64,000 nt of DNA. Origin: Candidatus Dojkabacteria bacterium. Its GTDB lineage: Bacteria > Patescibacteriota > Dojkabacteria > SC72 > JAHDCA01. The stretch's first letter is position 1. Each line of letters opens with the position of its first letter. The DNA lies in assembly GCA_030583845.1 (NCBI GenBank), contig CP129478.1, positions 587,686 to 651,685 on the forward strand. The letters run 5' to 3'. Positions 24,400 through 57,949 of the stretch are shown piece after piece. The translations under genes were made by a program, and so were the position numbers. The notes below the pieces were generated by a model, which had not been told where the DNA came from, did not search any database, and saw only the letters and a list, made by a program, of their open reading frames with translations.

Positions 24400-24400
24400 G

Positions 24401-24561
24401 GCGCTAACCTATAATGCGTAGAATTGTACGGCTTATTAACCACCCGACCCACTTGCTTCGCAAGTGGTCGGGTGGTCGGGTGGCTAACCTTTATGGACTG
24501 TGATACTCTGATACTATCTACAGATTACAAATAAACTATTAACGCACTATGAGTTAGCGGC
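24401..24561. repeat. Composite nested palindromic element between the two surface paralogs, with family B half-sites flanking a family A hairpin.
   Basis: GCGCTAACCTATAATGCGTAG at 24401-24421. A CCACCCGACCCACTTGC-ttc-GCAAGTGGTCGGGTGG hairpin at 24440-24475. AACGCACTATGAGTTAGCGGC at 24541-24561 is the near reverse complement of the first half-site. Confidence 0.6.
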
Positions 24562-27853: not shown

Positions 27854-27896
27854 ATTAAAATCAAGGTAGAAATAAATTATTTACATGATTAGTTAA

Positions 27897-28232: not shown

Positions 28233-28303
28233 CCATATCTTGCGCTGTGAGTATCCTACACGAGTAGACAATTTCTGCTCTGTTTCCTATTATAAAAGCA
28301 GAA

Positions 28304-30214
28304 ATGTACATCACACCTAGGCAGAAAAAAAGGTATATATTCAGATTCACACTTGTCGCTTTAGCCATTCCGCTAGTGGTTTTGGCCATCTATGCTGGTG
28401 TCCAATGGTTTTCAAGCGCTGACACCGAAGCAACTCCCGAGGATGTAGTTATCAGCAACCTCACTACCAGCGCTGTCACATTGAGCTGGACCACGACGGT
28501 GGATGCTAGCTCCAGCGTGAAGATGGTCGAAAGCGGAGATGTCTTCACCGATCCGCGAGGTGCAAGCTCAAGAAGGACCCATTTTGTTGAAGTCACTGGG
28601 CTCGAGCCAGAGACAGAGTATGAGTTCAAAATCACTTCAAATGGCCAGGATTATACCGCAGAGGGTGGAGCTGCATTTAGATTTACCACTGCCCCAGTGA
28701 GCGATGAGGCCTCAGTGCCCTTCCCAGCATATGGGACAATAGAGGGTGCGAATGGAGATGATGCACTTATTTTCTTCGTGGTTGCTGGTGCCACTCAATC
28801 TCTGCCGGTCTCAGCAGTGCCGCAATCAACAGGGAACTGGATCTTGGATCTATCTTCAGTCCGATCACTGGATGGTACTTCATTAATACAGGTCAGCAGC
28901 GATAGCTCTGTTGAGCTTCTGGCAATCGGGCATGACGGGATGGGCTCGAGAGTCACAGGAAAATTTAGCGATCTTTTCGACGAAGAGGGGATGCTTATTG
29001 CGGAATTTTCTCTTCAGTCCGATACCGATGTGATGGCCTACCTACCTGGCGCGTCAAAGATTACGACGATTATTGCTGAGCAGCCACCAGGAGAGGAACC
29101 ACCACCGTCTGAAGAACCACCACCATCTGAAGAGCCGCCTCCATCTGAAGAACCACCACCATCTGAAGAGCCACCTCCTGCTGAGGAGCCGCCACCATCT
29201 AACGACTTTGACCCTGCATCAAGACAGTTCCTGATTCGCGCCGATATCGTGTGGGTTGATATGGTTGAGATAACAGGCGATGGTGCTGCTCCAGTAGTTG
29301 TGACCGGTGAGCAGTCGGTACAGCTTGTTGCACGAAATGACACCAGCTTCTCTGTCGTATGGCTTACAGAAGATGAGGTCCCGGGCTATGTAAGCTATGG
29401 AGAGGATGAAGATGATCTGATCGAAGAGGCGATCGACATTCGCGACACCTTGGTATCGCGCGGAGATTACAGATCACACCTAGTCGAGATATCTGGTCTT
29501 ACCCCTGAGACCATATACTACTTTGAGATACATTCGGGCGACGAGACATACTCGTTGAACGGAGAGCCATATCAACTAGAAACATTTGACACAGTGGTCA
29601 CTCCACCACCATTTAGTACAGCCCAAGGCACAGTATCTGGCTTAGAGAGTTATGACGATGTTGTGGTGCTTGTGCAGCTAAATGATGTTGATGGCGCAGG
29701 TACTGCAGGTGCATCACAGCTTGGAGCTGTAGTCCCTGATGAGAATGGTGCTTGGATCGCAAGCATCGGCGACCTACGAAGCGAAAGTGGCACTGAGTAC
29801 TATGTGTTAGGCGATACAGATGAGGTTACAGCTGAATTGGTTGTATACGCTAATTCTGAGCCAGTCACGATTACAGGTGATGAGATTGAGGATAGTGAGC
29901 TAGCCTTGACTGCCGATCCGCCTACAGAGGGTGGGAGCAGCTACCAGCGAATAGCCTTGCTAAATGATTATGGGGTCTCATCGACCTATGCGGAGTCTCC
30001 AACAAGTGGCGTAGGGGGTGGTGGCCCTGCCGATGTCGATACTGGGAGCGAGATTACTACACCGAAGACCGGTATTGAAGATAACTTGGTAGTGGCTTCA
30101 GCGGTTGGTGGAGGTTTGCTTACGGTTGGGGCGGCTACTTTGTTGGTCGCTTACAGTGGTCGTGGCAAGAAGAAGGGCGTAAACAAGGGCTCTTTGACTA
30201 GTCGGGTCTCATAG
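28304..30214 (+). CDS. Cell-surface protein with an N-terminal TM anchor, two FN3-like domains, (EEPPPS)6 repeats and a C-terminal LPXTG-like sorting signal.
   Basis: FN3 signatures VTLSWTT...THFVEVTGLEPETEYEFKI and SFSVVWLTEDEV...YRSHLVEISGLTPETIYYFEI. The C-terminus reads TPKTG, then a 21-residue hydrophobic stretch, then RGKKKG. Confidence 0.7.
   Translation: MYITPRQKKRYIFRFTLVALAIPLVVLAIYAGVQWFSSADTEATPEDVVISNLTTSAVTLSWTTTVDASSSVKMVESGDVFTDPRGASSRRTHFVEVTGLEPETEYEFKITSNGQDYTAEGGAAFRFTTAPVSDEASVPFPAYGTIEGANGDDALIFFVVAGATQSLPVSAVPQSTGNWILDLSSVRSLDGTSLIQVSSDSSVELLAIGHDGMGSRVTGKFSDLFDEEGMLIAEFSLQSDTDVMAYLPGASKITTIIAEQPPGEEPPPSEEPPPSEEPPPSEEPPPSEEPPPAEEPPPSNDFDPASRQFLIRADIVWVDMVEITGDGAAPVVVTGEQSVQLVARNDTSFSVVWLTEDEVPGYVSYGEDEDDLIEEAIDIRDTLVSRGDYRSHLVEISGLTPETIYYFEIHSGDETYSLNGEPYQLETFDTVVTPPPFSTAQGTVSGLESYDDVVVLVQLNDVDGAGTAGASQLGAVVPDENGAWIASIGDLRSESGTEYYVLGDTDEVTAELVVYANSEPVTITGDEIEDSELALTADPPTEGGSSYQRIALLNDYGVSSTYAESPTSGVGGGGPADVDTGSEITTPKTGIEDNLVVASAVGGGLLTVGAATLLVAYSGRGKKKGVNKGSLTSRVS
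29093..29200 (+). repeat. 18-bp tandem repeat x6 encoding (EEPPPS)6.
   Basis: gaggaaccaccaccgtct and five near-identical in-frame units follow one another. Confidence 0.85.
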
Positions 30215-30282
30215 AGGTTATAACTGATGACTCCTGCAGCTCAATCAAGGCTAATTCTTAATCGTTCCCACACCTATAGCCT

Positions 30283-30311
30283 TGTAAACTTTTTGCCTAA
30301 TCAGTACAATT
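30283..30311 (+). promoter_or_regulatory. Candidate promoter (TTGTAA, 17-nt spacer, TACAAT) for gene 30338.
   Basis: -35 box at 30283-30288 and -10 box at 30306-30311, 26 nt upstream of the ATG. Confidence 0.35.
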
Positions 30312-30337
30312 TGGCAATTTAGCTTCTGTAATATTGA

Positions 30338-31864
30338 ATGTTGAAACTCGATAAAAGCAATTCACTATTTTTTCTGTTGGGCATCTTTGCACTGCTTTTT
30401 CTCGGCTATGTAGCCCTTTTCTATGAAAGCGATGCTTTTTATAGCGATGCGAAAGCCCCGGCAGAAGCATCCACAAGTAGCGAAGAGGCTGGTGGGTCAC
30501 AGGAAGTAGTGTTGGTGGGAAATACGGTCGGAGAAAATGTGGAAGTCCCAGAGATCACCGAAGAGCAGTATCGTCTTGTAAAAGAGCTAGTAATTGCAGC
30601 CGAGCCTTCACTCGCGAGCATGAGCAATCTGGATGAGGTTATTCGGGAGCCATATCTGGCTCAAAATATTGCTAGCCTGATGGAGCAGGTGGAAGAAAAT
30701 GATCTGACAGTGACACAGGTTCGAGCATCAGTACGTGGTGCTGGTACTGGGGATTTTAGCCCGACCGGTGAAGATTGCGCGGCAGGCGCGAAGGTGATTT
30801 TGATGGATCCGGCCTGTTATATTACCGAAGAAAACACCTCAATTAACGAGAATCTAGGTAACTATGTAGGCTCAGGGTGTGACAATAACCCTGCAACCCC
30901 GTGCCAGGTGCGGGCCAGCTCAGTTATTGAGCCGTGGGAGATCAATGGCCCAGATCAGAACCAGGGCTACTCTGCTGGAACTGATGTACGAGGAAAGACC
31001 GAGAGTGAACGGATCCTGATTCAGAACAAGCAGATGAAAGATGGAGTCCTAGCCTATCACTCAGAGAGCGGTAGCTATTATGGCGATGCCTCGGATGCGG
31101 AGAAGTATGAGCAGTTCAAGCAGGTAAATATGGGCGTGGCAAATTTGCTACGTCCACAGCTAGCAAGGGAGGTTTCAGAAGACTCAGCTGATGCCAAGAG
31201 AGACTTTGCAGTAGAGATCTGCGCAGGTGGTGAAGAGGTGTGTGATCAGAACGAGAAGACATTGGCCAGATTCAAAGGTACCAACTCAGATGGTGATTAT
31301 CTTAGCCCTGCAAACAGCAATAAATTTGCCGAGGCCAGATATTTTGGGAAGGCGCTCCAGCCACCTACTGGTGAGGTCGAGACTGAGCTACGAAATGAAT
31401 GCGTTGATAACAGCTCTCCACAATATCGCAATATTAGTAAGACAGATCAGCTATGTCTTGGGTCACGCAGGGTTTCTGATGTGTATCATGGCGTAAAGCA
31501 GCTTGGCAATGAGATACTTTGCAGACTAAGGCCGAATGACAGCGATTGTCAGCTACAGGTTGTTACAGGCATCCAGGTCGGTTCGATGTTTGGCGATACT
31601 GAGTATTTTGTTGAAGGAATATCTAGCAACTATATGGCAGAAGCAATGGTTTCAGTGTATTCTTCCCCTGTTGATGACAGGAATGTGACTATGCTTAGAA
31701 CTCCGTGTACAATACGTATAGATTATTCTAAGATTGTTGACGTATACTGTTATATCAAGAATCAGAATGAGTATGCAGAGTTCTCAAGGCAGGCTGCAGA
31801 GATGACGCCCGGAGATTCATTCAAGTATGAAGCATATGGAAGCGCGCTTGAGGAGGAGTTTTAA
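30338..31864 (+). CDS. Secreted or membrane-anchored Cys-containing hypothetical protein.
   Basis: N-terminal hydrophobic anchor FFLLGIFALLFLGYVALF. About 14 Cys are scattered in the mature part. No recognisable catalytic motif was seen. Confidence 0.55.
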   Translation: MLKLDKSNSLFFLLGIFALLFLGYVALFYESDAFYSDAKAPAEASTSSEEAGGSQEVVLVGNTVGENVEVPEITEEQYRLVKELVIAAEPSLASMSNLDEVIREPYLAQNIASLMEQVEENDLTVTQVRASVRGAGTGDFSPTGEDCAAGAKVILMDPACYITEENTSINENLGNYVGSGCDNNPATPCQVRASSVIEPWEINGPDQNQGYSAGTDVRGKTESERILIQNKQMKDGVLAYHSESGSYYGDASDAEKYEQFKQVNMGVANLLRPQLAREVSEDSADAKRDFAVEICAGGEEVCDQNEKTLARFKGTNSDGDYLSPANSNKFAEARYFGKALQPPTGEVETELRNECVDNSSPQYRNISKTDQLCLGSRRVSDVYHGVKQLGNEILCRLRPNDSDCQLQVVTGIQVGSMFGDTEYFVEGISSNYMAEAMVSVYSSPVDDRNVTMLRTPCTIRIDYSKIVDVYCYIKNQNEYAEFSRQAAEMTPGDSFKYEAYGSALEEEF

Positions 31865-31882
31865 TATTAAGTAACGCCCAAA

Positions 31883-33361
31883 ATGGTAGATCGAATATAT
31901 AAGATATACAAATTCGCAGGAAAGATAGCTAGGTCGAGGGCTTTGAACAGTGCGCTGGTGCTTGTGGCGACATTCGGTCTAGGCTTGGAGGTCGTATCGC
32001 CAATTGTCTATGCACAAGACGGCGAAGGTAATGCAACCGTTGACGCAGGAGAGTCTTATACTTCTGGGACTGCTGTGATTGATACTCTGACAGAGTCAGA
32101 GGGTGTGACAGACAGTGCGAATCTGGCACAAAATCAGGCAACAGACTTCGCGATTGTTGCACTTTCGATTACATGTATGGAGTGTCTCGAGAATGCAGAT
32201 GATGTGGCTGCCAACCCAAATATCCATCCTTCTGCAAAGACAAGTCTACTGACCCTCGTTGATAATAACAATAGACAGATGCTTACAAATCCGCCTACAC
32301 AGAACCTTTACGCACATATGCAGACCCAGTGGATGCCAGGCGAGACATATGCAAATAGAAGCGTCTATGCTCAGTCTGGGTATGACTTACTCATATCGAC
32401 CGGCATTGATCAGCTCTGGGAAAATGTGAGAAATGTTGCCTACGTTATCTTCGTGCTAGTGCTTATAGTTGCCGGGTTTATGATGATGTTTAGGCAGAAA
32501 ATAGGTGGTCAACTGGCTGTGACGGTATTCAACACAATTCCTCAGGTCATAATATGCCTGATATTGGTAACATTCAGTTTCGCCATAGTCGGTTTAGTCT
32601 TAAATCTTAGCGCCACGCTTACAAATGTAGCTGCTGGTATTCTTGGCCTAGCTGATCCGACAGATGGTGTAACGGCCACGGGGCCGCTTTCAGTGTTTAG
32701 CGCATTTATTTCTGGGAATATTGTTACTGTTGGTGCGGCAAGTGTAACGACAATAGTAACTACAGTAGCAGGATCGATCTTGGCAAATAGTGGAATTGCA
32801 GCACTGGGTATAGCTGCCTCTCCATTGGCAGGTGGTACACTAGCTATTATAGGTCTTGTTGGCATCTTGATAGTGTTAGTTATCCTCGGAATCGTTCTGG
32901 TTGGATCAGTGAAGGTATGGATTACCCTTCTAAAGGCATATGTTGGTATACTTATCGATACAATATTGGCTCCACTCTATTTAACAATGTCCGCCTTGCC
33001 TGGCAGATCTCAGATGCGCGGAGATTGGTTTAGACGAATCCTCAAAAATGCATTAACTTTTACTGTTGTGTTTTTCTTCCTTAATCTTGCGGCTTTTGTA
33101 TTTAATGCAAACATTAATCTTGGATTTCCTACCTCTCTGGCAGAAGGTCAGACAGCTCCAGTTGGCTCTGGCCCCGTTTTGCTTGCGTGGCTGCTGAAAG
33201 GTGCAGTCTCGATCTATCTAGTATATGTAGCGGCTGAGGCACCTAAATTCCTTGAAGAGTTCTTGCCGCAGACTGGTGGGAAGAGTGTTGCAGGGGCACT
33301 GCAGTCAGCTGCTAAGGGTGCATTTGGCAAGCTTCCAATTGTCGGTGGCATGATGGGCTAA
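31883..33361 (+). CDS. Polytopic membrane protein with a VirB6/TrbL-like topology: a signal peptide, a ~170-aa extracytoplasmic domain, then 5-7 TM helices.
   Basis: Signal-like SALVLVATFGLGLEVVSPIVYAQ. Dense TM bundle from VAYVIFVLVLIVAGFMMMF onward, with Gly/Ala-rich helices. Confidence 0.6.
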   Translation: MVDRIYKIYKFAGKIARSRALNSALVLVATFGLGLEVVSPIVYAQDGEGNATVDAGESYTSGTAVIDTLTESEGVTDSANLAQNQATDFAIVALSITCMECLENADDVAANPNIHPSAKTSLLTLVDNNNRQMLTNPPTQNLYAHMQTQWMPGETYANRSVYAQSGYDLLISTGIDQLWENVRNVAYVIFVLVLIVAGFMMMFRQKIGGQLAVTVFNTIPQVIICLILVTFSFAIVGLVLNLSATLTNVAAGILGLADPTDGVTATGPLSVFSAFISGNIVTVGAASVTTIVTTVAGSILANSGIAALGIAASPLAGGTLAIIGLVGILIVLVILGIVLVGSVKVWITLLKAYVGILIDTILAPLYLTMSALPGRSQMRGDWFRRILKNALTFTVVFFFLNLAAFVFNANINLGFPTSLAEGQTAPVGSGPVLLAWLLKGAVSIYLVYVAAEAPKFLEEFLPQTGGKSVAGALQSAAKGAFGKLPIVGGMMG

Positions 33362-33437
33362 TGAGCTGTTTTTCGACCAATTCCCAAGCTGAGAGAATCA
33401 GGCCACTGTTCTGAAATAATTATGTGAGCATAACTTA

Positions 33438-36400
33438 ATGGCGCAAAGAAAAGACCTATACTCCAATTCGTTCTCCTCGGTGTCGAGCTTTATTTTGGGT
33501 AATAACAAGCCTAAGAAGCCTGTAAAACGCAAGCCGCCTAAGTATGATGGGATTGATTATAATGATGGTCTCGCAGGCGCGCTTGCAACCATGGCAGGTG
33601 CGCCTGGTGTGTTTCTGGGTGAATCAGCCATAAACTCGCTTAACTCCACCCTTGGAGACCCTTCTCTGATAGAGCTTTATATTGATAAAAGCGAGAAGCA
33701 AAAGATGCAGGGTCTGGATAAGAATGCTGGACGTATTAGGGTCCGTGGATCTGACCTTAACAAGTTTATACAGTCTCCAAGCTCATTTCTCGACAAGGCA
33801 CTTCAAGGTGCACGTGCTGAACGGAAGTGGGCACTTACGGTAGCGCTTCTTGGTGGTGGTGCAGAGGTAGCAAATACCTATATGTGGGCAAAGAAAAACA
33901 ACCTCAGCAATAGTGATGCAGCTCGGCTTGCAAGCTCGGTATGGGATCTGGATAAGAGTATTTACACCGATCAAGAAAGTCTTGGAATAATGACAGAAAC
34001 GGCGCTCCTTAAGAGTGGAGGCCGGTCGATCAAAGAGGCTGAGGAATTAAACGCCAAACTTGTGGCGAGCGTGGCAAAGCAGAAAGAGGGTAGGCAGACT
34101 GTATCACGTTTATGGACTGGAGCGGCATCCGATGTTTCTGATCACATAATGTCTGGTGCACTGTTTAAATCTCAAGATGAGTACTCAAAATTTCTCTTGG
34201 AGAAGGGTCTTAAAGATAAGGAACGAGACTTAGTCTTGAAGCTTAGAGCAGGTACACTTACGGAACCGGAGGAAGTTAGTTACGCCAATCGGCTTGAGAA
34301 TGATCTCAAGTCTGCCGCTGCAGCAGGATGGCCTAAAATTACGTCGCAGAAGACAAAGCTAGATGCTCTTGTTAGTCAGAGCATACCAGATCCGGCAGCT
34401 CGTGAGCGATTCTATCAAGAGTTTGCGAAAGAGTATACCTCAAGGTATGGAAAAGTTGATTATACGGCAACAGGCAACTTAACGAATTTCGGTGTCCGCG
34501 AGATGTTGAAGGATAATTATTGGGCGAAGGCACAGCTTTCGACTGGAGCTGATAAGGAGAAGTATCTGAGAACAATAGCAGCTGTAGATGTATTGCAGAG
34601 GACGAAATCGCCGGGTGATTATTCAAAGCCTGATTACGATAAAGCAAGAGAGGCTGTTACATCACTCAAAGGACAGCCAGGTGTATCTCAGTCGGATATA
34701 GATGGCCTCTTGGGACAGATAAATAAAGCGGAGTCAATGTACGCAAAACGGTATGTTAAGCATCGTGCGCATAATGAGGTTGAAACTAAGTGGCTAAAGC
34801 CACTTAATAATCCGATGATGTCCTATGAAAATGCTCCTGAGGCCAAGCTTTTGCTTGAGGCCAAGCTGAAAACAAGCAGATATAGTCTTATATCACGAGG
34901 TTTAGCAGTGGATGACCCACGGGTACAAGAGATCGATTATGCGTTGGAGACGTTAAAAAGTGGGTTCAACCCGTTTGGTGGTGGTCGTCCACGTATGGCA
35001 AATATGATAATGATGTACCGCTCAAGGGGTAGCATGGCAAATTTTGTACCTGGGCTGTTTACTGGTGCTTCCTATGCCGATGGTGTGATGTCACCAGGGG
35101 ATTGGGGAGGGATCACTATGAAATATAGGATGAAAGATCGTTGGGGGGTTGATAAGAACGGTAACCCGAAGTTACAGGTCGGAGAAGCTAAAGGATTTAT
35201 CCTGCAAGGCCGCTCGCACCTTCCAACTGCATATCAAGGGCTAGTGAACTACTACTATCTGACTCCAGGCAGTTTGATCAAGAGTACATTGTGGAATGGT
35301 GAGGGTCTTTACTACCTTGCAGAGCAACGAAGGCGCCGAGGGATTACCAAGATGCTTTCTGAGCTCGATCCCGATAAAATCCAGAATCCAACAGGCTCCC
35401 TGGCGAAGTACTTCGAAGCGTTGAAGGATGATGCGGGCAATGTAACGGGGCATAGGTTTATGTGGGAAAAGGTGGATGGGGATTTTCTTGGGATTCTGGA
35501 AGCGCTAAAAGATTCTGGCTACGCTGAACTATACAGGAAGTATGACAAAGTATTTAGAGGATATGAGTCTACTGTCGCGTGGGCGCATAGATTCGCAATG
35601 CCTGAAAGATTTTTCGGAAATAAGGGGGTAATCGGAGCGCAAAGACTTAAACTTCAAGGTAAAGTTGTACAATTCTTTGGTGCATTGTCAAAAAATAAAG
35701 AATGGAATGCTGCACTTAAGCTGTTCGGAGCAGGTGAGATCGGGCTCTATCAGCTGGTCGAGGCTGGTGTGAAGATTGTATTTGGCACAGTACTTAAGGC
35801 TCTCGGCCCAGTCGGTACCGTACTCTCATTTGTCATCACGGATGTAATTGTCTCAGCCCTTGTCAAAATAAGCAAACCAATCCTCGATATGAGCGTATTT
35901 GCCCTAATGGCAACGGTCGCTCTCTTCTTCCTACTTCTCTGTACAGTAATCTCAAGCCCATTCACTCTTGCCAACCGCCTCAAGACACATGCAGTCCAGC
36001 CGCCAGTCGAGGGAGTCGAGCTCGAGCCATTGCCAGGTGAATTCCCGGATGATCCAGATGCAGTAGTTATTGACCCAACCAAAGATGCGATCTGTCCAAT
36101 AAATGCAGGTGCAATCTGTACGCAGGGACCACGCGGCTCCTACTCACACGCCAGGATGGGTACATATGCAATCGATGTGAGCACAGGTGCAGGTCCATTC
36201 AGAGCGCCAACCGATGGTGTAGTTGTGAGTGTGAGATCGTCAAACTCTTGCCCATGGGGACCAAACCGTGGAGCAAATTATGGTGGATCTGTTGTTTTCC
36301 GATCGTCGGATAATATCTACTATGAAGTGATGCACGCAAATCCAACAGTAGGCACTGGTCCTGTTGAGCAGGGCACAGTGTTAGCGACAATGGCTTACGG

Positions 36401-36554
36401 ATTGCCACGAAGCGGGTGCTGGACTGGGGCACACTACCATATCGATACCTGCTTCGGCAGCCAGTCTGCTTGTGTAGCTCGAAGCCGAAGTGCCAGATGG
36501 CTTAACTCTAAAGATTGGTATAACGAGTTGAAATGTAATATCCGCGGATGTTAG
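33438..36554 (+). CDS. Large (1038 aa) protein with a ~760-aa N-terminal domain, an internal TM hairpin and a C-terminal M23 (LytM-type) peptidase domain.
   Basis: M23 motifs HARMGTYAIDV...GAGPFRAPTDGVVV (HxxxD and active-site region) and GAHYHID (HxH). TM segments at aa ~770-840 (IVFGTVLKALGPVGTVLSFVITDVIVSALV and VFALMATVALFFLLLCTVI). Confidence 0.7.
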   Translation: MAQRKDLYSNSFSSVSSFILGNNKPKKPVKRKPPKYDGIDYNDGLAGALATMAGAPGVFLGESAINSLNSTLGDPSLIELYIDKSEKQKMQGLDKNAGRIRVRGSDLNKFIQSPSSFLDKALQGARAERKWALTVALLGGGAEVANTYMWAKKNNLSNSDAARLASSVWDLDKSIYTDQESLGIMTETALLKSGGRSIKEAEELNAKLVASVAKQKEGRQTVSRLWTGAASDVSDHIMSGALFKSQDEYSKFLLEKGLKDKERDLVLKLRAGTLTEPEEVSYANRLENDLKSAAAAGWPKITSQKTKLDALVSQSIPDPAARERFYQEFAKEYTSRYGKVDYTATGNLTNFGVREMLKDNYWAKAQLSTGADKEKYLRTIAAVDVLQRTKSPGDYSKPDYDKAREAVTSLKGQPGVSQSDIDGLLGQINKAESMYAKRYVKHRAHNEVETKWLKPLNNPMMSYENAPEAKLLLEAKLKTSRYSLISRGLAVDDPRVQEIDYALETLKSGFNPFGGGRPRMANMIMMYRSRGSMANFVPGLFTGASYADGVMSPGDWGGITMKYRMKDRWGVDKNGNPKLQVGEAKGFILQGRSHLPTAYQGLVNYYYLTPGSLIKSTLWNGEGLYYLAEQRRRRGITKMLSELDPDKIQNPTGSLAKYFEALKDDAGNVTGHRFMWEKVDGDFLGILEALKDSGYAELYRKYDKVFRGYESTVAWAHRFAMPERFFGNKGVIGAQRLKLQGKVVQFFGALSKNKEWNAALKLFGAGEIGLYQLVEAGVKIVFGTVLKALGPVGTVLSFVITDVIVSALVKISKPILDMSVFALMATVALFFLLLCTVISSPFTLANRLKTHAVQPPVEGVELEPLPGEFPDDPDAVVIDPTKDAICPINAGAICTQGPRGSYSHARMGTYAIDVSTGAGPFRAPTDGVVVSVRSSNSCPWGPNRGANYGGSVVFRSSDNIYYEVMHANPTVGTGPVEQGTVLATMAYGLPRSGCWTGAHYHIDTCFGSQSACVARSRSARWLNSKDWYNELKCNIRGC

Positions 36555-36567
36555 TTAGGAATCAAAT

Positions 36568-37659
36568 ATGGACAAGCTGCTCAACATAATAAAAAAGAAT
36601 AAAGTCGTGGTGCTTGGAGCTCTAGGGCTGTTGCTGGTAATTGCTATTGCACTAATTGTTATGCAGCTAATTGGTGGTGAAGAGACAGAAATCCCGAAAG
36701 GGAGTGTTGACCAGCCTTTTACATATGAGACGGGCAAGCAGTTGGAGATACCGGAAACAGTTGAGTACACAAATTTCGACCCAGGTGATGATACGACTGC
36801 GCCAATTTACGAATTTGCACTTGAGAATAAAGTCGATCTTGTGAAATCGTTCCTGGGTAGCATCGGTAAACGCTCGATGGAGCTCGAGGAGTATGAGGAT
36901 GTTGTGTATTACTGGAGAGATGACCCGAGCGATGATTTCTATGTGGTTGAGTACAACGCGTTGACCGACCGTGTATTCTTTAGATTTGAGAGCGCTGTAG
37001 ATCCAGACCTGAATGCTGGTGGATATCTGAGCAGAGAGGATCTCGAACAGTATTTTACTGCTTTTGTTCATGAGTATTGGGATCAGTCGTACAGCTACAC
37101 TGATTTCAATGTGACTAGGGATGGATCGACTTATCGAATTGAGGCGAGCAGGCTGATTGGGAAGTATCCTTTGCACATCTCTGGCTTTGAAGAGTATTCG
37201 GATTATCTGGTTGTTGAAGATGATGGAGATATACTCGAGGGGCAGATCTATCTGATGAATTACGATCTCTCTACAGCACAGAATGTTGATCTTATTACGA
37301 CAGTTGGTCTCGGATCAGTGATCGGGCGAGATGATTATCCGAAGGATTTCTATCAATTGGAGCCTCAAGATCTTGATGGTACCTTATTATATGGTGAGCC
37401 ATACACACCTGCACAATCAGCAGGTGATCCTCCTCCAACGCCTGATGGTGAGATCCCAGAATTGACCGAGTGCACAGCTGAAGAGATATCGTTGGTGTAC
37501 CTCTACATGAGCGGTACATATCAGATGCTTACCCCAGCGTATAAGATCAGGTGTGCTGGAAATGTCGTCGTAGAAGGTAGGAGCTATAGAACAGAGGCGC
37601 TTGTTTTTGCCAATGCGATCGATCCGGAGCTTGTGTATGTGCCGGCAACGACGGAGTAG
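36568..37659 (+). CDS. Membrane-anchored extracytoplasmic hypothetical protein.
   Basis: N-terminal TM VVVLGALGLLLVIAIALIVMQLI. Acidic, aromatic-rich body with C-terminal Cys residues. Confidence 0.55.
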   Translation: MDKLLNIIKKNKVVVLGALGLLLVIAIALIVMQLIGGEETEIPKGSVDQPFTYETGKQLEIPETVEYTNFDPGDDTTAPIYEFALENKVDLVKSFLGSIGKRSMELEEYEDVVYYWRDDPSDDFYVVEYNALTDRVFFRFESAVDPDLNAGGYLSREDLEQYFTAFVHEYWDQSYSYTDFNVTRDGSTYRIEASRLIGKYPLHISGFEEYSDYLVVEDDGDILEGQIYLMNYDLSTAQNVDLITTVGLGSVIGRDDYPKDFYQLEPQDLDGTLLYGEPYTPAQSAGDPPPTPDGEIPELTECTAEEISLVYLYMSGTYQMLTPAYKIRCAGNVVVEGRSYRTEALVFANAIDPELVYVPATTE

Positions 37660-37779
37660 CTTACGGATGGGTTATGTAAGAAATTCATTAACTCTTAATG
37701 GGAGATTCTGTATATAATAGTGCCGCTACTGACTAATTTTGTAGTTGCGGATTTAATCTTTGCCCGATAAGATATAGGT

Positions 37780-38976
37780 ATGAAAATTTTGACCAAGATT
37801 GTAAATATTCTGCTTGTTGTTGCCGCGTTTGTGGTGGTTGTGCCTCAGGTTCCAGGATATCAAGCTGTCAAAAGAGAAGATCTTGGTTTTGATGAAGGTC
37901 TCTCAAGCAAAGACGCTGCACTATATGCATTTCCAGGTAAGATATTAATAACACAGGTCGAAGCTCCAAATACCGCGATGGAATCTGACCCGGAATCATG
38001 GATCGATCTGCTCTACTACTACTACATCACAAGACTCGGTTTTGGCGACCTACCATACACCTATCTGGTTGATAAGTCGGGCACAGTGTACGAAGGCCGC
38101 TCGAATTATGAGGGAGTTGTGCCAGAGCTGCTGGATGCAGAAGGTGCTGTGCTAATTGGCTATCTATCAAATGGTGCCGATGTTACCTCTGCAGCAGCAG
38201 ATTCAATCAACGAGCTGGTCGAAGAGGTCTCATATAAATATGGAATCACTCGTGAAAATGTAGAGGCCGTTGACCTTGAAGTATCTCAGCAGACTGCTGA
38301 AGGTGAGCTGAGCAAGCTCGAGTATAAGAGTACTGATTCAATGTTTGCAGATGAGCTTGATCAGATCCTTTCAAAGGTTACATATTCCGATAGAGAAAAT
38401 TTGAGCTTTAAGGCAGCTGTCAGCGAGGTAAGCTTCGAAGAGAAGGTGCCGATCGGCGGGAAGCTAACTGTGAAATTCAAACTGAAGAATGATGGCGATA
38501 CTCCATGGTTTACACTGAACGATTTTGTCTATGTGGTCACATCAAGCAACGAAGATAGTCAATTTGCGGTAAATGGTGAGTGGGATAGCTTCGATACACC
38601 AACCCATGTTGAGGGCAAGACTGTGTTGCCTGGCGAGAGCGTAGATATTGAGTTCCAGATGGCAGCCAATACAATGCCTGGTGAGTACTCTGAGAGCTTC
38701 AAATTTAGCCGTACTGGTGGTAAAGATCTGCAGGGTGGTGAGTTTGAAGTTAAGTTCACAATCGAGCAGGGCGATGTCCAACTGATTGAGATCACAGAAA
38801 CTGAGACCGGTAATCTAAATGTCCGCAAAGACCCAAATCTTGGGGCACAGGTGGTTGGACAGGTTGATTCCGGCGCAATCTTTGTAGTTAAAGAATCGCA
38901 AAATAACTGGTATAAGATTGAATATGAGCCTGGCGCAGATGGCTGGGTGATCGGTAGATATATAAAGCGGCTTTGA
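37780..38976 (+). CDS. Secreted amidase_2/PGRP-like domain protein with a C-terminal bacterial SH3 (SH3b) domain. The catalytic Zn ligands are possibly substituted.
   Basis: Signal/TM ILLVVAAFVVVVP. LGFGDLPYTYLVDKSGTVYEGR resembles the amidase_2 GYHFLI..DG.I..GR block but lacks the His residues. The C-terminus TGNLNVRKDPNLGAQVVGQVDSGAIFVV...NNWYKIEY..GADGWVIGRYI has an SH3b signature. Confidence 0.55.
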   Translation: MKILTKIVNILLVVAAFVVVVPQVPGYQAVKREDLGFDEGLSSKDAALYAFPGKILITQVEAPNTAMESDPESWIDLLYYYYITRLGFGDLPYTYLVDKSGTVYEGRSNYEGVVPELLDAEGAVLIGYLSNGADVTSAAADSINELVEEVSYKYGITRENVEAVDLEVSQQTAEGELSKLEYKSTDSMFADELDQILSKVTYSDRENLSFKAAVSEVSFEEKVPIGGKLTVKFKLKNDGDTPWFTLNDFVYVVTSSNEDSQFAVNGEWDSFDTPTHVEGKTVLPGESVDIEFQMAANTMPGEYSESFKFSRTGGKDLQGGEFEVKFTIEQGDVQLIEITETETGNLNVRKDPNLGAQVVGQVDSGAIFVVKESQNNWYKIEYEPGADGWVIGRYIKRL

Positions 38977-39049
38977 ACTACCCGACCACTTGGCGTTTAT
39001 CGTATAGTGAGCAGCACTTTGCCACCTAGCCAAGTGGTCGGGTAGTTTT
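38976..39049 (+). repeat. Family A palindromic element, likely the terminator after gene 37780-38976.
   Basis: Perfect 19-bp stem AACTACCCGACCACTTGGC / GCCAAGTGGTCGGGTAGTT with a 34-nt loop and a TTTT tail. Confidence 0.6.
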
Positions 39050-39059
39050 ACCAATAAAG

Positions 39060-41078
39060 ATGAAAGACAATACCTTCCTTGAACAATTAAACACGCCTCA
39101 GAGAGAGGCTGCAGAGCATGTTGATGGCCCGTTGCTTATTTTTGCTGGTGCAGGGTCGGGGAAAACTCGCGTTCTTACCTACCGAGTCGCGAACCTAGTT
39201 ATCAACCACGATGTGAAGCCGCACAATATCCTCGCTGTAACGTTCACCAAGAAAGCTGCACAGGAAATGCTTGAGCGTATCAACAATATCTTGCTTGAGA
39301 AAAGTCCAGACATCTCTGAGCGACCACACATAGGAACATTTCACTCGATATCTGCCCAAATCTTGCGGCGCGAGGGGAAATATCTTGGATTTGATAGCAA
39401 TTTCTCAATTTATGATACGAGCGATTCAGAGGGACTGATCAAGGAGCTGATGCTCGCTGCAAACCTTGATGTGAAGCAGTTTAAGCCGGCGGTGATAATG
39501 CATATGATAGGTGCAGCGAAAAACGATATGGTGAGTCCTGATCAATTTGCATTTCATTATGCTGGTTTTATAGAGGATATTGCAGGTCAGATATACCCTG
39601 AATATCAGAAGCAGCTGCTTGAGATGAATGCAATGGACTTCTCGGATCTGCTCTACTATGTAGCCGAGCTTTTTACAAAACAGCCAGACATCCTCGAGAA
39701 GTATAAGAATCTTTATAAGTACATCATGGTCGACGAGTATCAAGATACCAATAAGGTTCAGTACACCATAATAAAGAAGCTTTCAGAGGCGAGCAAAAAC
39801 CTATGCGTGGTTGGTGACGATGATCAAAGCATCTATAAATGGCGTGGGGCAGACATCCACAATATCATATCTTTTGAACGCGATTTCGATAATGTAAAGA
39901 TCGTCAAGCTTGAGCAGAACTATCGCTCAACAGACAACATAATTAAAGCTGCAGTTGCAGTTATCCAGCAAAATAACGAGCGTGTTGAGAAAGAGCTTTG
40001 GACCGATAAGGGCGAGGGTGACAAAATAACGGTATACCAGGCTAGAGATGAGAAAGGCGAGGCGCAATTCATTGTGGATGAGATTACTCAGCTCAAGAAT
40101 AACCGCTACTACAAGCTTGGTGATTTTGCCGTCCTATACCGCACCAACTACCAGTCGCGTGTAATCGAGGAAGAGCTGCTCAAGCGGGGCATCCCTTACA
40201 AATTGGTTGGGGGCTTCAGATTTTATGATCGCAAAGAGATCAAAGACCTTCTCTCCTACCTGCGCGTCGCCAATAACCTGAAAGACGACATCAACCTATA
40301 CCGAGTTATCAATGTGCCCGCCCGCAAGATGGGCCCAACCTCGCTCGCCAAACTGGTGCAAACTGCTCGTAAATGCAAGACATCCGCGGCAGAAATGTTG
40401 GCAATTGCCTATATTCTTGGGCGAAACGACTTAAACATTAGCGACTACGAATTCGACCAGACCAAGGTCGACGCTGTGGATAAGTCTCTCGACGAGCTGC
40501 TTAAATTTCAGAAAGTTGTGGATATCTTCGGTGGTCTATACGCAGCTGCGCAAGATATGAATGTGATGGAGCTGCTAACAGAGCTGCTCAATAGGTCGAA
40601 GTATATTGAATCGTTTGACGACGGTAGTGAGCTTGCCGAATCGCGCAAAGAAAACGTGCAGGAGTTAAGAAACCTTGCAGCCAGCTATGCCGAAAAGTAT
40701 GGCGCAAAATCGCTAAATAAATTCCTGCAAGATATCGCACTTATTGAGGAGGAGCAGGAGAAGAGCAAGAAAGAAAGCTCAGCTGGGGCTGTTACATTGA
40801 TGACGCTTCACTCTTCGAAGGGGCTGGAGTTCCCAGGTGTATTTATGATCGGAATGGAAGAAGGAATAATGCCTCACTCAAGGTCTTTTACCGATCCTAC
40901 CGAATTAGAAGAGGAGCGTAGACTCTGTTATGTAGGGATTACGCGTGCACAGGAGAGGCTTTGGATGACCTTCTCAGAAGCGAGGACGCAGATGGGTGGC
41001 TACAGCGATCAGATACCGTCAAGATTCCTGGGTGAAGTGCCACAGGAGCTGTGTGAATATTACAGCTGGAATATCTAG
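39060..41078 (+). CDS. pcrA: ATP-dependent DNA helicase, UvrD/PcrA/Rep family.
   Basis: Walker A GAGSGKTRVLTYR, DEYQDTN (motif II) and the helicase motifs of SF1A. Length is 672 aa. Confidence 0.9.
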   Translation: MKDNTFLEQLNTPQREAAEHVDGPLLIFAGAGSGKTRVLTYRVANLVINHDVKPHNILAVTFTKKAAQEMLERINNILLEKSPDISERPHIGTFHSISAQILRREGKYLGFDSNFSIYDTSDSEGLIKELMLAANLDVKQFKPAVIMHMIGAAKNDMVSPDQFAFHYAGFIEDIAGQIYPEYQKQLLEMNAMDFSDLLYYVAELFTKQPDILEKYKNLYKYIMVDEYQDTNKVQYTIIKKLSEASKNLCVVGDDDQSIYKWRGADIHNIISFERDFDNVKIVKLEQNYRSTDNIIKAAVAVIQQNNERVEKELWTDKGEGDKITVYQARDEKGEAQFIVDEITQLKNNRYYKLGDFAVLYRTNYQSRVIEEELLKRGIPYKLVGGFRFYDRKEIKDLLSYLRVANNLKDDINLYRVINVPARKMGPTSLAKLVQTARKCKTSAAEMLAIAYILGRNDLNISDYEFDQTKVDAVDKSLDELLKFQKVVDIFGGLYAAAQDMNVMELLTELLNRSKYIESFDDGSELAESRKENVQELRNLAASYAEKYGAKSLNKFLQDIALIEEEQEKSKKESSAGAVTLMTLHSSKGLEFPGVFMIGMEEGIMPHSRSFTDPTELEEERRLCYVGITRAQERLWMTFSEARTQMGGYSDQIPSRFLGEVPQELCEYYSWNI

Positions 41079-41144
41079 CCCGACCACCCGACTACTTGCG
41101 AAGCAAGTGGGTCGGGCAAGTGGTCGGGTGGTCGGGCTAGTTTA
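41075..41144. repeat. Family A palindromic element with an internal duplication, shared by the convergent pcrA and rpfB-like genes (bidirectional terminator candidate).
   Basis: The left arm CTAGCCCGACCACCCGACTACTTGC pairs with GCAAGTGGTCGGGTGGTCGGGCTAG (1 mismatch). An extra GCAAGTGGGTCGGG copy sits in the loop. Both stop codons lie inside the element. Confidence 0.6.
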
Positions 41145-42126
41145 CCAGTCGTGTGCAGGCAGGCCAATGGTGTGCAGCACCACCTGAACGATAAATTGTG
41201 AGGGAGATTCTAAGCTGCTGATAACCATCCCAAATATTGGTACCGCCATATCCAGCGAAAGTCCTTTCGGAGAACTGCATTAAGCCTTTGTAGAGCCCTC
41301 CATTATTAGCACCTGCATAGCAGCCAGACTCACACCTCATCACAGATTTGAGCCAGTATCGTTCTGCATCGCTGCCAGTGATCTGGTCAATATAGCTATC
41401 CCACTGTACACAGCTGTTATTCAACCCTGGGACTGTGCTGAAATCAATTCTTTCTCTAGTTCCGACTTTGGTGATCTTGTTTACGACAGGTGTGACCATT
41501 TTCTGGTCAGTGACTTTCTCTTCAACCATCTGGCCATCATGGAATGTCCTTAAGATTGTTATCTCTTTCACACCATTCTGCCCTTCTTGTGTTACAAGTG
41601 ATGTGCCAACATACATGCTCGAGTCATTTACCTGCTCAGACCTGAATGGGACTATCTCTGTAACTGTCTCAAATGTTTTCTCAACTTTAACCAGTTTTAC
41701 GAGGAGGTTGTCGCTGATCTTAGTATCAAGATCTGGGGTGATAATATAGTCATCGACGTTGATCCCTAATGTTTTGACCACATCTCCGACAGTTGCTCCG
41801 TATATAAGCTCGGTAGTTACACCATCTACATTTTCTACTTTTACCATTACAATATTCTCTCCGTCGATAACTAGACGGTCATCATCCTCAAATTTGCTTG
41901 AGAAAGTGTGTGAGAAACGTTCGCTTGAGAGTTCTGATGCTCCGAGTACTGCCTGCTCATAAGCAGAAACAGAACGGCCTGTAGAAATAAAGCTGTGGAA
42001 AAGTGACGATAACACGAGAAAGGTCAAGACGTAGGCAGTAAAGGAAAAGATTCGCTTACTTCTTCTGCGTCTGTTTGAGGCTCTCAGGAGTCTACTATAA
42101 CTGCGATTGTGCAGCGGTATACTCAC
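41137..42126 (-). CDS. rpfB: Resuscitation-promoting factor RpfB-like protein: membrane anchor, DUF348-like region, G5 domain and a C-terminal Rpf-type transglycosylase-like domain.
   Basis: The C-terminal CESGCYAGANNGGLYKGLMQFSERTFAGYGG...HHWPAC fits the Rpf domain pattern (CESGGNW...GYYGGLQFS..TW...GG...W..C). The G5-like block is GQNGVKEITILRTFHDGQMVEEKVTDQKMVTPVVNKITKVGT. Confidence 0.7.
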   Translation of the reverse strand: MSIPLHNRSYSRLLRASNRRRRSKRIFSFTAYVLTFLVLSSLFHSFISTGRSVSAYEQAVLGASELSSERFSHTFSSKFEDDDRLVIDGENIVMVKVENVDGVTTELIYGATVGDVVKTLGINVDDYIITPDLDTKISDNLLVKLVKVEKTFETVTEIVPFRSEQVNDSSMYVGTSLVTQEGQNGVKEITILRTFHDGQMVEEKVTDQKMVTPVVNKITKVGTRERIDFSTVPGLNNSCVQWDSYIDQITGSDAERYWLKSVMRCESGCYAGANNGGLYKGLMQFSERTFAGYGGTNIWDGYQQLRISLTIYRSGGAAHHWPACTRLVN

Positions 42127-42389
42127 TTTTTCTTTAATTAATATCTTAATTCCATCGCTACATCTAATCTCAAGAACTAGAAGTAACTCATGTTGCTTTT
42201 ACTCACTCTAGCCGTCTGAATAATAACAGTCTGACCAGTGGTGCAACTTATGAGGCTACCATGCGGCAAACTTCGTATTTGCCCGTTGGTACGCTGTTTT
42301 TGATGGAACGGTGCATACTAACATATATTTGACAAGAAGTCACATAAGTAACTAGTATGTAGGTAGCACAATTAAGAAATAGTATTCTC

Positions 42390-43820
42390 GTGGAAGAAAA
42401 ATTTCAAGAGGGCGAAATCTCAAAGATTTCATTAAAAGATAATGAAGTGTCTGCCCAAGAACAGAAAAATAAGAAAGGTAGTAAGAATATGCCGGGTAAG
42501 CCTAAGAACAAAAAGTGGCTAACACTCCTTATGGTTGTGACAGGTATACTGCTTCTCGTACTAGTCGGGCTTATCGGTTATCGATTTTTCGCAAGATCTT
42601 CATCGAAAGATAAGTATGAGGCTCTTATGCTTGAGGCTGCCGGGCAGCACGACGATCAGGAGTACTCGCTTGCACTTGCTACATATAATGAGGCTCTCGC
42701 ACTTGATCCCACATTCCCTTCTGCATATATAGGTGTATTAAATATATTGCTCGAAAAGAACCTCGCTGATGATGCCGAAGAATTTGTAGCCGGTGCCGAA
42801 GAGATAATCGGTGGTGGAGATATGGCCGAGCTATATCTGCTTATGGCTGACTATTACTATGATGCTAAGGCTTGGGACAAAGCATATGCTTACTATGCAA
42901 AGGTCGGCAATCTCGAGGGAGAATCAATCGATCGATTTGCTATCGCCTCTGTAAACTCGCAAGAAGAGGATTGGAAATCACTTACCAGCCAGGTAAGCGA
43001 TGAGAAATTGCAGACTGTACTTCAGCAATATTCAGACATAAGCACCCAAAGTGATACAGATCTTTATGATCGAGCCAAGTTGGCTCAATTGGCCATCAAC
43101 GCCAAGGCTTACTACTTTGCGGTGAATCTGCTAAAGGATGATCAAGATCTGCCAGATTATTGGGATGGGCTCTACTATGTTGGGCGGGCCTACTACGAGC
43201 TGGGTGAGTATGAAAGAGCCGCCGACTACCTTGACCAGGCAGTACAGATTGCCCCTGAAGATCCAGCCTTACAGCTACTTGCTGCTCGTAACAGCGTACA
43301 AGATGGAAATCGTGATCTAGCATTCAGTCATTACGATCAGTACATCTCCTATTCAAAAGGTGATGGAGCTGACCAGGCAGTACTCATTGAATATATTGAG
43401 CTCTTGATTGAGGCGGAGAGATATTCGAAAGCGCTCGAGGTAATTTCTGAGCAAGAGACATCAACAGATGAGCTTGAGCTTCTAAAATTGCAGGTCTATA
43501 TCGCTCAGAAGGATAGCTCTGAGGTTATCCAGCTACTTGATAGGATGGAGTCGACCGTGGCTCCTGGGTCAGATAGCTATTATATGTATATCTGGTTAGC
43601 TGCTCTTTGGTATATCGAAGAGGGCCAATTCACAAAAGCAGAGGGATTGCTCTCACCAGTTGAGGAAGCGACTGCACAAGATCCGTACTATTTCTATGTA
43701 ATGGGCAGGCTAGTCGATGCAAAGGGTGACGAAAAAGGTGCTGATGAGTACTTTAAACTTGCTGTGGAGAAAGACCTGGAGGGTGAGGTGTCAAAATTGG
43801 CACTCAACTATATCCAGTAG
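42390..43820 (+). CDS. Membrane-anchored TPR-repeat protein.
   Basis: N-terminal TM WLTLLMVVTGILLLVLVGLIGY. Repeated A/L/Y-rich 34-residue TPR-like units (LALATYNEALALDP..., YYVGRAYYELGEYERAADYLDQAVQIAP...). Confidence 0.6.
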   Translation: MEEKFQEGEISKISLKDNEVSAQEQKNKKGSKNMPGKPKNKKWLTLLMVVTGILLLVLVGLIGYRFFARSSSKDKYEALMLEAAGQHDDQEYSLALATYNEALALDPTFPSAYIGVLNILLEKNLADDAEEFVAGAEEIIGGGDMAELYLLMADYYYDAKAWDKAYAYYAKVGNLEGESIDRFAIASVNSQEEDWKSLTSQVSDEKLQTVLQQYSDISTQSDTDLYDRAKLAQLAINAKAYYFAVNLLKDDQDLPDYWDGLYYVGRAYYELGEYERAADYLDQAVQIAPEDPALQLLAARNSVQDGNRDLAFSHYDQYISYSKGDGADQAVLIEYIELLIEAERYSKALEVISEQETSTDELELLKLQVYIAQKDSSEVIQLLDRMESTVAPGSDSYYMYIWLAALWYIEEGQFTKAEGLLSPVEEATAQDPYYFYVMGRLVDAKGDEKGADEYFKLAVEKDLEGEVSKLALNYIQ

Positions 43821-43947
43821 CCGCCCCGTTAACTTATAGTACGTGCATCAATAGTGTATTCATAGCCTTCCTTTCAATTTATGAATTCTAAATAAGTGAA
43901 ACTGCTGCAGCAATTAAGACTTGACGCACTATAAGTTAGCGGGGCGG
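43821..43947 (+). repeat. Family B palindromic element (long-loop version) immediately after the TPR gene stop.
   Basis: CCGCCCCGTTAACTTATAGTACGTGC (43821-43846) pairs with GACGCACTATAAGTTAGCGGGGCGG (43923-43947), separated by a 76-nt loop. Confidence 0.55.
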
Positions 43948-43957
43948 CAGGCGGTAC

Positions 43958-43986
43958 TTGCATTAGTTGCTCGCCGCATATATACT
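43958..43986 (+). promoter_or_regulatory. Candidate fusA promoter (TTGCAT, 17-nt spacer, TATACT).
   Basis: -35 box at 43958-43963 and -10 box at 43981-43986. The leader is about 125 nt. Confidence 0.35.
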
Positions 43987-44114
43987 CCACAGCAGCCAAT
44001 CACCCCGTTAGTTCGCAGCCAACCTATCAGCTGATATCTTGAGTATCCACCTGATTTATTGCGAGCTGACGAGATGGTCGGAAGCGACTATATATTAATT
44101 AATGTATTAAAAAT

Positions 44115-46228: not shown

Positions 46229-46285
46229 CCGCCCCGCTAACTTACAGTGAAGTTCTCACTATAAGTTAGCGGGGCGGTTTCATTT
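46229..46285 (+). terminator. Family B palindromic element acting as a probable intrinsic terminator after fusA.
   Basis: 22-bp stem CCGCCCCGCTAACTTACAGTGA / TCACTATAAGTTAGCGGGGCGG (1 mismatch), loop agttc, then TTTCATTT. Confidence 0.7.
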
Positions 46286-46328
46286 AATACCGCTCGCGAA
46301 AAATAGTGAAAAATATTGTGTAAAACGC

Positions 46329-46357
46329 TTGCATACCTCTGATCTTTTTGATAAGAT
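46329..46357 (+). promoter_or_regulatory. Candidate tuf promoter (TTGCAT, 17-nt spacer, TAAGAT).
   Basis: -35 box at 46329-46334 and -10 box at 46352-46357. An AT-rich leader follows. No tRNA was seen in the 270-nt spacer. Confidence 0.35.
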
Positions 46358-46478
46358 CCATTCGACGCCGACCACGGTAGGCAAAGCCGTAGCGGTAGTG
46401 CAATTGTGTGGTTATACAATAGAAAATCTGGTATAAACACATAATTGGGAAATTTTTAATTTTTTAATAATTAAGTAA

Positions 46479-47653: not shown

Positions 47654-47702
47654 CTCCCCCGCTAACTTATAGTGAGAAGCTCACCATAAGTTAGCGGGGG
47701 AG
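47654..47702 (+). repeat. Family B palindromic element after tuf (hairpin or attenuator between tuf and the S10 operon).
   Basis: CTCCCCCGCTAACTTATAGTGA-gaagc-TCACCATAAGTTAGCGGGGGAG, a 22-bp stem with 1 mismatch and no clean T-tract. Confidence 0.65.
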
Positions 47703-57923: not shown

Positions 57924-57949
57924 GTTGATAACTTTAGCCCTAGCTATTC

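Follow-up and report, generated by a model that had tools for sequence, protein, structure and literature searches.

Family A, a set of stop-proximal GC-rich palindromic repeats with REP/REPIN-like features in a Candidatus Dojkabacteria genome

The DNA analysed here (64,000 nt; positions 587,686–651,685 of contig CP129478.1, assembly GCA_030583845.1, Candidatus Dojkabacteria bacterium), hereafter referred to as the window, contains four GC-rich hairpins, A1–A4, which make up palindrome family A, and in each of them the core CCGACCACTTG(G)C is present on both arms. All four had been singled out previously from the letters alone (the original prediction), and reading of the sequence together with an inverted-repeat scan placed each of them where it had been claimed to lie. 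A1 is located between an SH3-domain gene and pcrA, A2 between pcrA and an rpfB-like gene, A3 between secY and adk, and A4 between two paralogous surface-protein genes.

A1 (38976–39047) has two 19-nt arms, AACTACCCGACCACTTGGC and its complement (38976–38994 and 39029–39047; 100% complementary), separated by a spacer of 34 nt. Its 5′ edge is the final base of the TGA stop codon of the SH3-domain gene, TTTT follows directly on the 3′ side, and the ATG of pcrA lies 13 nt beyond the end of the hairpin. The gene upstream had been labelled amidase-like, a label that lacks Pfam support, as only SH3_3, SH3_4 and an Ig-like domain were found. A2 (41075–41140, minus strand) has 25-nt arms (41075–41099 and 41116–41140; 96% complementary) with 16 nt between them, and this interior consists largely of the right-arm core repeated (GCAAGTGGGTCGG), which corresponds to the internal duplication reported earlier. 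A2 takes up all of the DNA between pcrA and the convergent rpfB-like gene and overlaps both stops, as had been stated, with the two TAG codons lying inside its CTAG ends. Read on the minus strand, A2 comprises a 38-nt unit common with A4, an additional left-arm copy and a tandem octamer, CCCGACCA, mirrored on both arms. The right-hand ends given previously for A1 and A2 (39049 and 41144) were correct as to place but 2–4 nt too far. The TAG stops at A2 were also considered as an insertion signature and set aside, given that TAG is used by 28 of the 64 genes.

In A3 (57858–57923), the core arms, CCGACCACTTGGCG(G/A)C, are found at 57861–57873 and 57908–57920, with 34 nt separating the two 13-nt cores. 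The stem is of about 19 bp and includes one G–T pair, while weaker symmetry extends over 57851–57930. The hairpin starts right behind the TAA stop of secY, lacks a T-run, and leaves 27 nt to the start of adk. A4 (24436–24487, plus strand) is a short form, TTAACCA CCCGACCCACTTGC TTCG GCAAGTGGTCGGG TGGTCGGG TGGCTAA, with a stem of about 17 bp, a bulged C and a TTCG tetraloop; it sits 36 nt past the stop of the surface-protein gene at 23218–24399. Relative to the upstream stop codon, the hairpins thus start at −1 (A1), −4 (A2), 0 (A3) and +36 nt (A4), so that three of them touch a stop codon and A4 does not. The predicted loop range of 16–34 nt describes A2 (16 nt) and A1 and A3 (34 nt), but not the tetraloop of A4. 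T-runs follow some hairpins and not others, as had been observed: TTTT at A1, TTT on the plus strand only at A2, and none at A3 and A4. The sequences of A1, A2 and A3 are identical in independently assembled contigs from four sequencing runs (A1 in L082, L083 and L084; A3 in L001, L002 and L003) and are therefore not assembly artefacts.

The core is strongly enriched. With up to two mismatches allowed, the 13-mer CCGACCACTTGGC has 7 matches in the window against 0.83 expected, a count reached by none of 100 shuffles, and GGTCGGG has 14 matches against 2.8 expected. The family A copies always occur as inverted pairs, and their predicted folds are very stable, with energies of −46.1 (A1), −61.5 (A2; also −53.5), −43.2 (A3) and −35.7 kcal/mol (A4), and z-scores against shuffles of −8.1, −10.4, −9.2 and −4.7, respectively. 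Although 92.8% of the window is coding, all four copies fall within the remaining ~7% of non-coding DNA (P ~2.5e-5). No match to the window at the gathering score was found in Rfam 15, and at the hairpins only generic miRNA-precursor models were matched, far below threshold. The DNA read for this species amounts to 79 kb of a 1.04-Mb genome, i.e., the window, 9.5 kb upstream of it (L107) and 5.7 kb downstream (L085). A scan of a genome-contig collection (this metagenome-assembled genome (MAG) not included) with the hairpin pattern returned 76 loci, none from this species and most of them unrelated palindromes; in a metagenome scan no Dojkabacteria copies of family A were found, but Treponema-like look-alikes instead, and viral contigs gave no family A match.

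Comparison of the copies with each other shows that sequence has been copied between sites. A 38-nt unit, CCCGACCCACTTGC TTCG CAAGT(A/G)GTCGGG TGGTCGGG, is common to A2 (minus strand) and A4 (plus strand) with a single mismatch, although the sites are 16.6 kb apart. The unit takes in the TTCG loop, the bulged C and the one-sided octamer, and because such an asymmetric unit is common to both, A2 and A4 are copies of one another rather than products of convergence. A1 and A3 have identical arms (14 nt and 13 nt) at an equal spacing of 34 nt, whereas their spacers are no more similar to each other than shuffles are. Where copies differ, the change is seen on both arms in mirror image, as with a G:C indel (CTTGGC or CTTGC) and the tandem duplication of CCCGACCA in A2. 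In addition, pairing runs 3–7 bp outward past the core with copy-specific sequence in all four copies. From the mirrored differences and the outward pairing it follows that the hairpin itself is being preserved, whether through selection or because one arm serves as template for the other.

The orthologous sites of A1 and A2 were compared in relatives; for the A3 and A4 sites, IF-1 and L36 either differ in the relatives or have no record there, and look-ups with P0241 and with 24782–27853 returned nothing. PcrA of two congeners, L080 and L081 (~40 kb together), shares 86% and 85% identity, respectively, with the protein of the window, followed by ~65% for the more distant Dojkabacteria L108 and L110 (44 kb together). 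In both congeners gene order is conserved, yet unrelated small hairpins occupy the A1 and A2 sites, and the family A core is absent from all ~40 kb. Family A is likewise absent from the 44 kb of L108 and L110, where the syntenic 22 kb contain no long GC-rich palindromes of any kind and the pcrA–rpfB gap of L108 is only 9 nt. Thus, family A is restricted to the species level, and its description as lineage-specific is borne out at the orthologous A1 and A2 sites as well as across the stretches compared in all four relatives. A separate observation is a hairpin behind fusA in L080 (17053–17087), TTCCCGACCTCCTCGC gaa GCGTGGAGGTCGGGAA, of which only the outer CCCGACC/GGTCGGG is common to family A.

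On balance, we consider it somewhat probable that family A represents young, species-specific short interspersed palindromic repeats of the repetitive extragenic palindromic (REP) or REPIN (REP doublets forming hairpins) type. According to the literature, REPs are found mainly 3′ of ORFs (open reading frames), between unidirectional or convergent genes, and have G–T pairs in their stems (PMC3733652), whereas a REPIN consists of two conserved inverted REPs and a spacer that is never identical among copies (PMC3337134). Family A is a short imperfect palindrome repeated extragenically, and the anatomy of A1 and A3 fits the REPIN pattern because their arms are conserved and their spacers unrelated; the units are inverted and the whole folds, with the caveat that the arms are not themselves small palindromes. 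As in the REP/REPIN systems of Pseudomonas and Enterobacteria with their REP-associated tyrosine transposases (RAYTs) (PMC3337134, PMC3733652), the palindromes are GC-rich, lie 3′ of ORFs, are species- or genus-specific and belong to one of several families per genome; inverted conserved arms with a variable spacer, G–T stem pairs, a clustered or nested arrangement and a palindrome-flanked RAYT in a sister species are further points of likeness. The assignment to a REP-type family made in the original prediction is thus favoured by the extragenic position, the palindromic structure, the copied units, the constant arms around unrelated spacers and the RAYT of the sister species, and is disfavoured by the GTAG tag, which is present in one copy only.

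The RAYT-type Y1 gene in question is found between fusA and tuf of congener L081 (16852–17599). It encodes a protein of 209 aa (PF01797) with an HUH motif (HYH) and the tyrosine motif YIHLNP, and its homologues carry the annotation 'REP element-mobilizing transposase RayT'. On both sides the gene is flanked by a third palindrome family, AATCCCGGGGAT..ATCCCCGGGATT, and flanking palindromes are the usual layout of RAYT genes (PMC3733652). In the window, the fusA–tuf gap holds a palindrome of another family (B, described below) in place of the RAYT, and neither a RAYT gene nor a copy of the AATCCCGGGGAT..ATCCCCGGGATT family was found anywhere in the window. None of the best 120 homologues of the sister-species RAYT lies on the contig of this genome, and a short RAYT contig, L111, carries a different repeat, not family A.

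In the proposed mechanism, the functional unit would be the complementary arm pair, (C)CCGACCACTTG(G)C and its complement, which as single-stranded DNA would fold into a long hairpin. Copies may have been inserted at the few places where a 93%-coding genome tolerates them, i.e., in short gaps behind stop codons, often in or beside other hairpins, and the symmetry of the arms may have been kept afterwards by selection on the hairpin or by one arm templating the other. The most likely driver would be a Y1 HUH transposase of the RAYT type that acts on hairpins of single-stranded DNA. Once inserted, the copies would be transcribed at mRNA 3′ ends, where the RNA hairpins could protect the 3′ end or partly terminate transcription; mobilisation by a transposase and any role at the RNA level are in this case deduced from the arrangement of the sequences.

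Several points weigh against the REP/REPIN assignment. Neither a Y1 transposase (tblastn) nor any other transposase was found in the window, the 79 kb read for this species contain none either, and the RAYT of L081 is flanked by a palindrome other than family A. The canonical REP tag is a GTAG or CGTC tetranucleotide at one end (PMC3733652); family A has no conserved tag of this kind, the tetranucleotides being GTAG in A1, CTAG in A2 and ACAG in A3, with none in A4. The sequence AGTT, which occurs 1–2 nt past the stem in three copies, is not a canonical tag. In most families, REPs have 6–13-bp stems and 2–3-nt loops (PMC3733652), dimensions exceeded by the 17–25-bp stems and 34-nt spacers of family A. 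Just four copies are present in the 79 kb of this species, to which the flanks (9.5 kb before and 5.7 kb after the window) contribute none; this would correspond to ~15–130 copies genome-wide, a figure that is an extrapolation only. Furthermore, congener coding DNA is only 71–80% identical for the conserved genes of the region and 65–69% for others, and since the intergenic DNA of the relatives cannot be aligned, there is no empty-site proof of insertion. No differences in the presence or absence of copies were seen when four samples of the species were compared. The host also differs from those of the classical systems, being a Patescibacteria genome of 1 Mb in which the family is known without a cognate RAYT, and no description of REP-type repeats in Patescibacteria was found in the literature.

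Family A is also reminiscent of TIRtrons/TIRYTs, the terminal inverted repeats (TIRs) associated with Y1 transposases, which are moderately abundant long inverted repeats unrelated to GTAG REPs, sometimes self-complementary and arranged in dimers or clusters (PMC3733652). Repeats of this type flank Y1 transposase genes and many of them share a GGGGWSAS motif (PMC3733652), whereas family A has no GGGGWSAS and no transposase adjoins any of the copies seen. Integron attC sites were rejected on reading, as the hairpins have no R″/R′ consensus ends and lie in a housekeeping gene context.

Besides family A, this genome has further palindromes, namely families B and D and a hybrid. Family B, with the core CCGCTAACTTATAGTG, is found in the window at 43820–43948, 46229–46277 and 47654–47702, after a TPR gene, fusA and tuf, with loops of 1–79 nt. 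It is also present in the congeners (L080 18459–18524; L081 18922–18966 and 19329–19373), though the intergenic DNA is otherwise unalignable, and is absent from the distant L108 and L110. Reading of the sequence revealed a further, diverged pair of family B arms around A4: the left arm, GCGCTAACCTATAATGCG, at 24402–24419, is complementary at ~15 of 19 positions to the right arm, CGCACTATGAGTTAGCGG, at 24543–24560, directly before an ATG at 24562, so that A4 is nested between the two. A second case was found ~2.3–2.8 kb past the end of the window, in the RNase P RNA gene of the same species (L085 11431–11870; RF00010, 129 bits). Helix P3 of this RNA (L085 11450–11508) is a perfect hairpin with 28-bp arms. 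At its base stands CCCGACCA/TGGTCGGG, identical to the octamer of family A, and its loop carries a 35-nt insertion that is a palindrome of family B. The spacers of A1 and A3 are each marginally similar to family B (p ~0.04 each). Although the statistics are weak, this suggests, as a lead, that palindromes of the lineage land in or beside existing hairpins.

Of the other explanations, the one that survives best regards family A as functional RNA hairpins (terminators, 3′-end stabilisers or RNase III-type processing sites) whose similarity is preserved by selection or gene conversion, a good or protein-recognised stem being reused. We regard it as unlikely. In its favour, a stop codon adjoins three of the four copies, the convergent gap is taken up by A2, and TTTT follows A1; the relatives also have hairpins behind the same stops, albeit with unrelated sequences; both stem imperfections (in A2 and A3) are G–U pairs on the sense strand, and the outer pairs covary. 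The Treponema look-alikes described below have A-runs and T-runs on either side, in the manner of two-way terminators. A GC-rich stem right after a stop, the short T-run of A1 and the position of A2 are thus what is expected of Rho-independent terminators, but a stem sequence that recurs at several sites, loops of up to 34 nt, atypical for terminators, and the lack of T-runs at A3 and A4 are not. A consensus terminator scan of 23000–42900 called none of A1, A2 and A4, and the combination of a GC stem, a short loop and a downstream T-run that marks an intrinsic terminator is not displayed by the family. Selection on the stem would also leave the 38-nt unit, including its loop and asymmetries, unexplained. 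As for the G–U pairs, the stem mismatches of family B are antisense G–U in three of four cases, which together with the two sense pairs of family A (two of two) gives 3 versus 3 over both families; this strand signal is uninformative and was set aside.

The genes downstream of the hairpins speak against termination as well. A1 ends 13 nt before pcrA, and A3 lies in the 92 nt between secY and adk, which belong to one gene row. No sigma-70-like promoter arrangement was detected in the A1 or A3 spacers by scanning and reading, nor between A1 and pcrA. With efficient termination, pcrA, adk and the genes that follow would be shut down, essential genes among them, and these have no room for promoters of their own; A1 and A3 must therefore be largely read through. 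The suggestion of the original prediction that the repeats were co-opted as terminators consequently suits A2, which lies between convergent genes and is likely a two-way terminator or insulator, and suits A1, A3 and A4 poorly, in view of the terminator scan, the T-runs and the downstream genes. Roles in 3′-end protection or processing have been proposed for REPs (PMC3733652), and it is possible that the RNA hairpins of family A act as sites of this kind.

An origin as miniature inverted-repeat transposable elements (MITEs) moved by a DDE transposase, with the arms as terminal inverted repeats in the manner of Correia/NEMIS elements, is improbable. Correia elements measure 100–155 bp, have a conserved interior and a TA target duplication, and are co-transcribed, and their long RNA stems can be processed or affect mRNA stability. 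Family A resembles them in being small (52–72 bp in total), in its inverted repeats of 13–25 bp and in its extragenic insertion near genes, and TA dinucleotides flank the CCCGACC..GGTCGGG body in A1 and A2. However, A3 and A4 have no TA flanks, and at A1 and A2 no target-site duplication can be claimed because TA is palindromic and part of the extended stem. Unlike in the Correia/NEMIS elements, the internal sequence is not conserved: the interiors of A1 and A3 are unrelated, and only A2 and A4 share theirs. Moreover, the window contains no transposase of any kind, and the sole one seen in the lineage is of the Y1/RAYT type.

Genome and metagenome scans also turned up the core TCCGACCACTTGC in hairpins resembling terminators, which occupy about six distinct loci in Treponema sp. 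UBA937 and in Treponema-like metagenome contigs (L017, L034, L087, L092, L094, L097, L101, L102 and L103), the predicted proteins of which are lipoprotein-like on reading. These hairpins are flanked by A-runs and T-runs, vary in their interiors and show unit duplications in L092 and L097. L092 shares with A2 a run of 22 consecutive identical bases including the tandem octamer, the longest among 96 foreign loci, where background maxima are 14–19 nt; of these 22 bases, however, 11 are forced by the search pattern and 8 more are a tandem repeat of part of the pattern. The likeness may be due to chance, to slippage-prone sequence present in both or to a common mobile element. The nesting of palindrome modules and the Treponema core match, with its octamer and 22-nt identity, allow for a reading in which family A belongs to a class of mobile palindromes that target other hairpins, settle in or next to them and cross from one phylum to another; we regard this as a long shot. 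If true, it would mean that a non-coding hairpin element and a transposase spread horizontally between a Patescibacteria symbiont and spirochaetes, and might trace a physical association of symbiont and host.

Very improbable, too, is the proposal that the arms are half-sites bound by a dimeric protein, such as an operator-binding, nucleoid or partition protein. In A1 and A3 the half-sites are the same and so is their distance of 34 nt, and A1, A3 and A4 lie upstream of genes, which would suit this proposal, but A2 lies between two gene ends with nothing to regulate, the spacing ranges from 3–4 nt to 34 nt, and copy-specific outward pairing is expected of a hairpin and not of an operator.

Patescibacteria are thought to rely on DNA uptake, which counts in favour of a motif of the DNA uptake sequence (DUS) kind, i.e., a species-specific 12–13-mer serving the competence machinery, with inverted pairs doubling as terminators as in Neisseria; family A does have a species-specific 13-mer that is conserved, stands directly behind genes and forms inverted pairs whose spacers are unrelated. 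Neisserial DUS, which often form terminator pairs, and the uptake signal sequences (USS) of Pasteurellaceae are likewise species-specific 10–13-mers in close inverted pairs with arbitrary spacers just past genes (PMC2397512). Such a motif is hardly credible here, as family A occurs about once per 16–20 kb and is thus ten-fold sparser than DUS at about one per 1.1–1.5 kb (PMC2397512), lacks the frequent (~1 per kb) single and intragenic copies of DUS/USS (an 11-mer with ≤1 mismatch has 3 matches outside the hairpins against ~1 expected, by a rough estimate), and has longer common units that include the loop, so that a uniform uptake motif leaves the 38-nt unit and the octamer duplications unexplained.

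With the REP/REPIN assignment preferred, family A adds modestly to a well-known type of bacterial repeat and opens no new category. If the family is driven by a RAYT, this candidate phylum would have active REP/RAYT systems. Although the genomes of Patescibacteria are small and streamlined, several GC-rich palindrome families occupy a noticeable share of the scarce intergenic DNA of the window, and one palindrome lies inside the RNase P RNA gene; the repeats would offer a natural test case for the effect of inserted hairpins on termination and mRNA stability where gaps measure tens of bases. Family A repeats would also serve as species- and strain-level markers in metagenomes. Palindromes of this genome break assemblies, since Logan contigs stop within A2, within the P3 palindrome of family B (RNase P RNA), and at 6798–6827 of the window. 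At the last of these sites, behind an HsdM-like gene, lies TTTAAAGTACACGAA|TTCGTGTACTTTAAA, an AT-rich and perfect palindrome of 30 nt, and it is precisely here that a Logan contig of 47 kb from this species terminates.

A few further observations were made. A fourth palindrome family (D), GCTCAGACCCGA|TCGGGTCTGAGC, is found in the window at 19382–19423, within the divergent gap 19357–19529, and downstream at L085 14048–14079. A multi-copy palindrome, CCAAGCCGACGACTTGTCGTCG...CGACGACAAGTCGTCGGCTTGG, occurs in many MAGs of Planctomycetaceae, Pirellulaceae and Lacipirellulaceae (L005, L006, L009, L013, L022, L025, L032, L035, L041, L043–L045, L056, L062, L063, L073–L075 and L079) and has nothing in common with family A beyond the degenerate search pattern. 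Just 3′ of A4, an 82-aa ORF (24562–24810) and an overlapping 1023-aa ORF (24782–27853) match consecutive parts of the paralogue at 21782–23071, and a search with the surface-protein paralogue recovered the query alone from this genome. From its sequence, the gene looks to be split by a frameshift, which may reflect a pseudogene, programmed slippage or a sequence error. Finally, two blocks are conserved among the three congeners while their intergenic surroundings are not: one upstream of fusA, ACTTGCATT...ATATATACTCC (43940–43990), and one upstream of tuf, GCTTGCATACCT..ATCTTTTTGATAAGATCCATTCGAC (46320–46365). Both are probably promoters or leaders.

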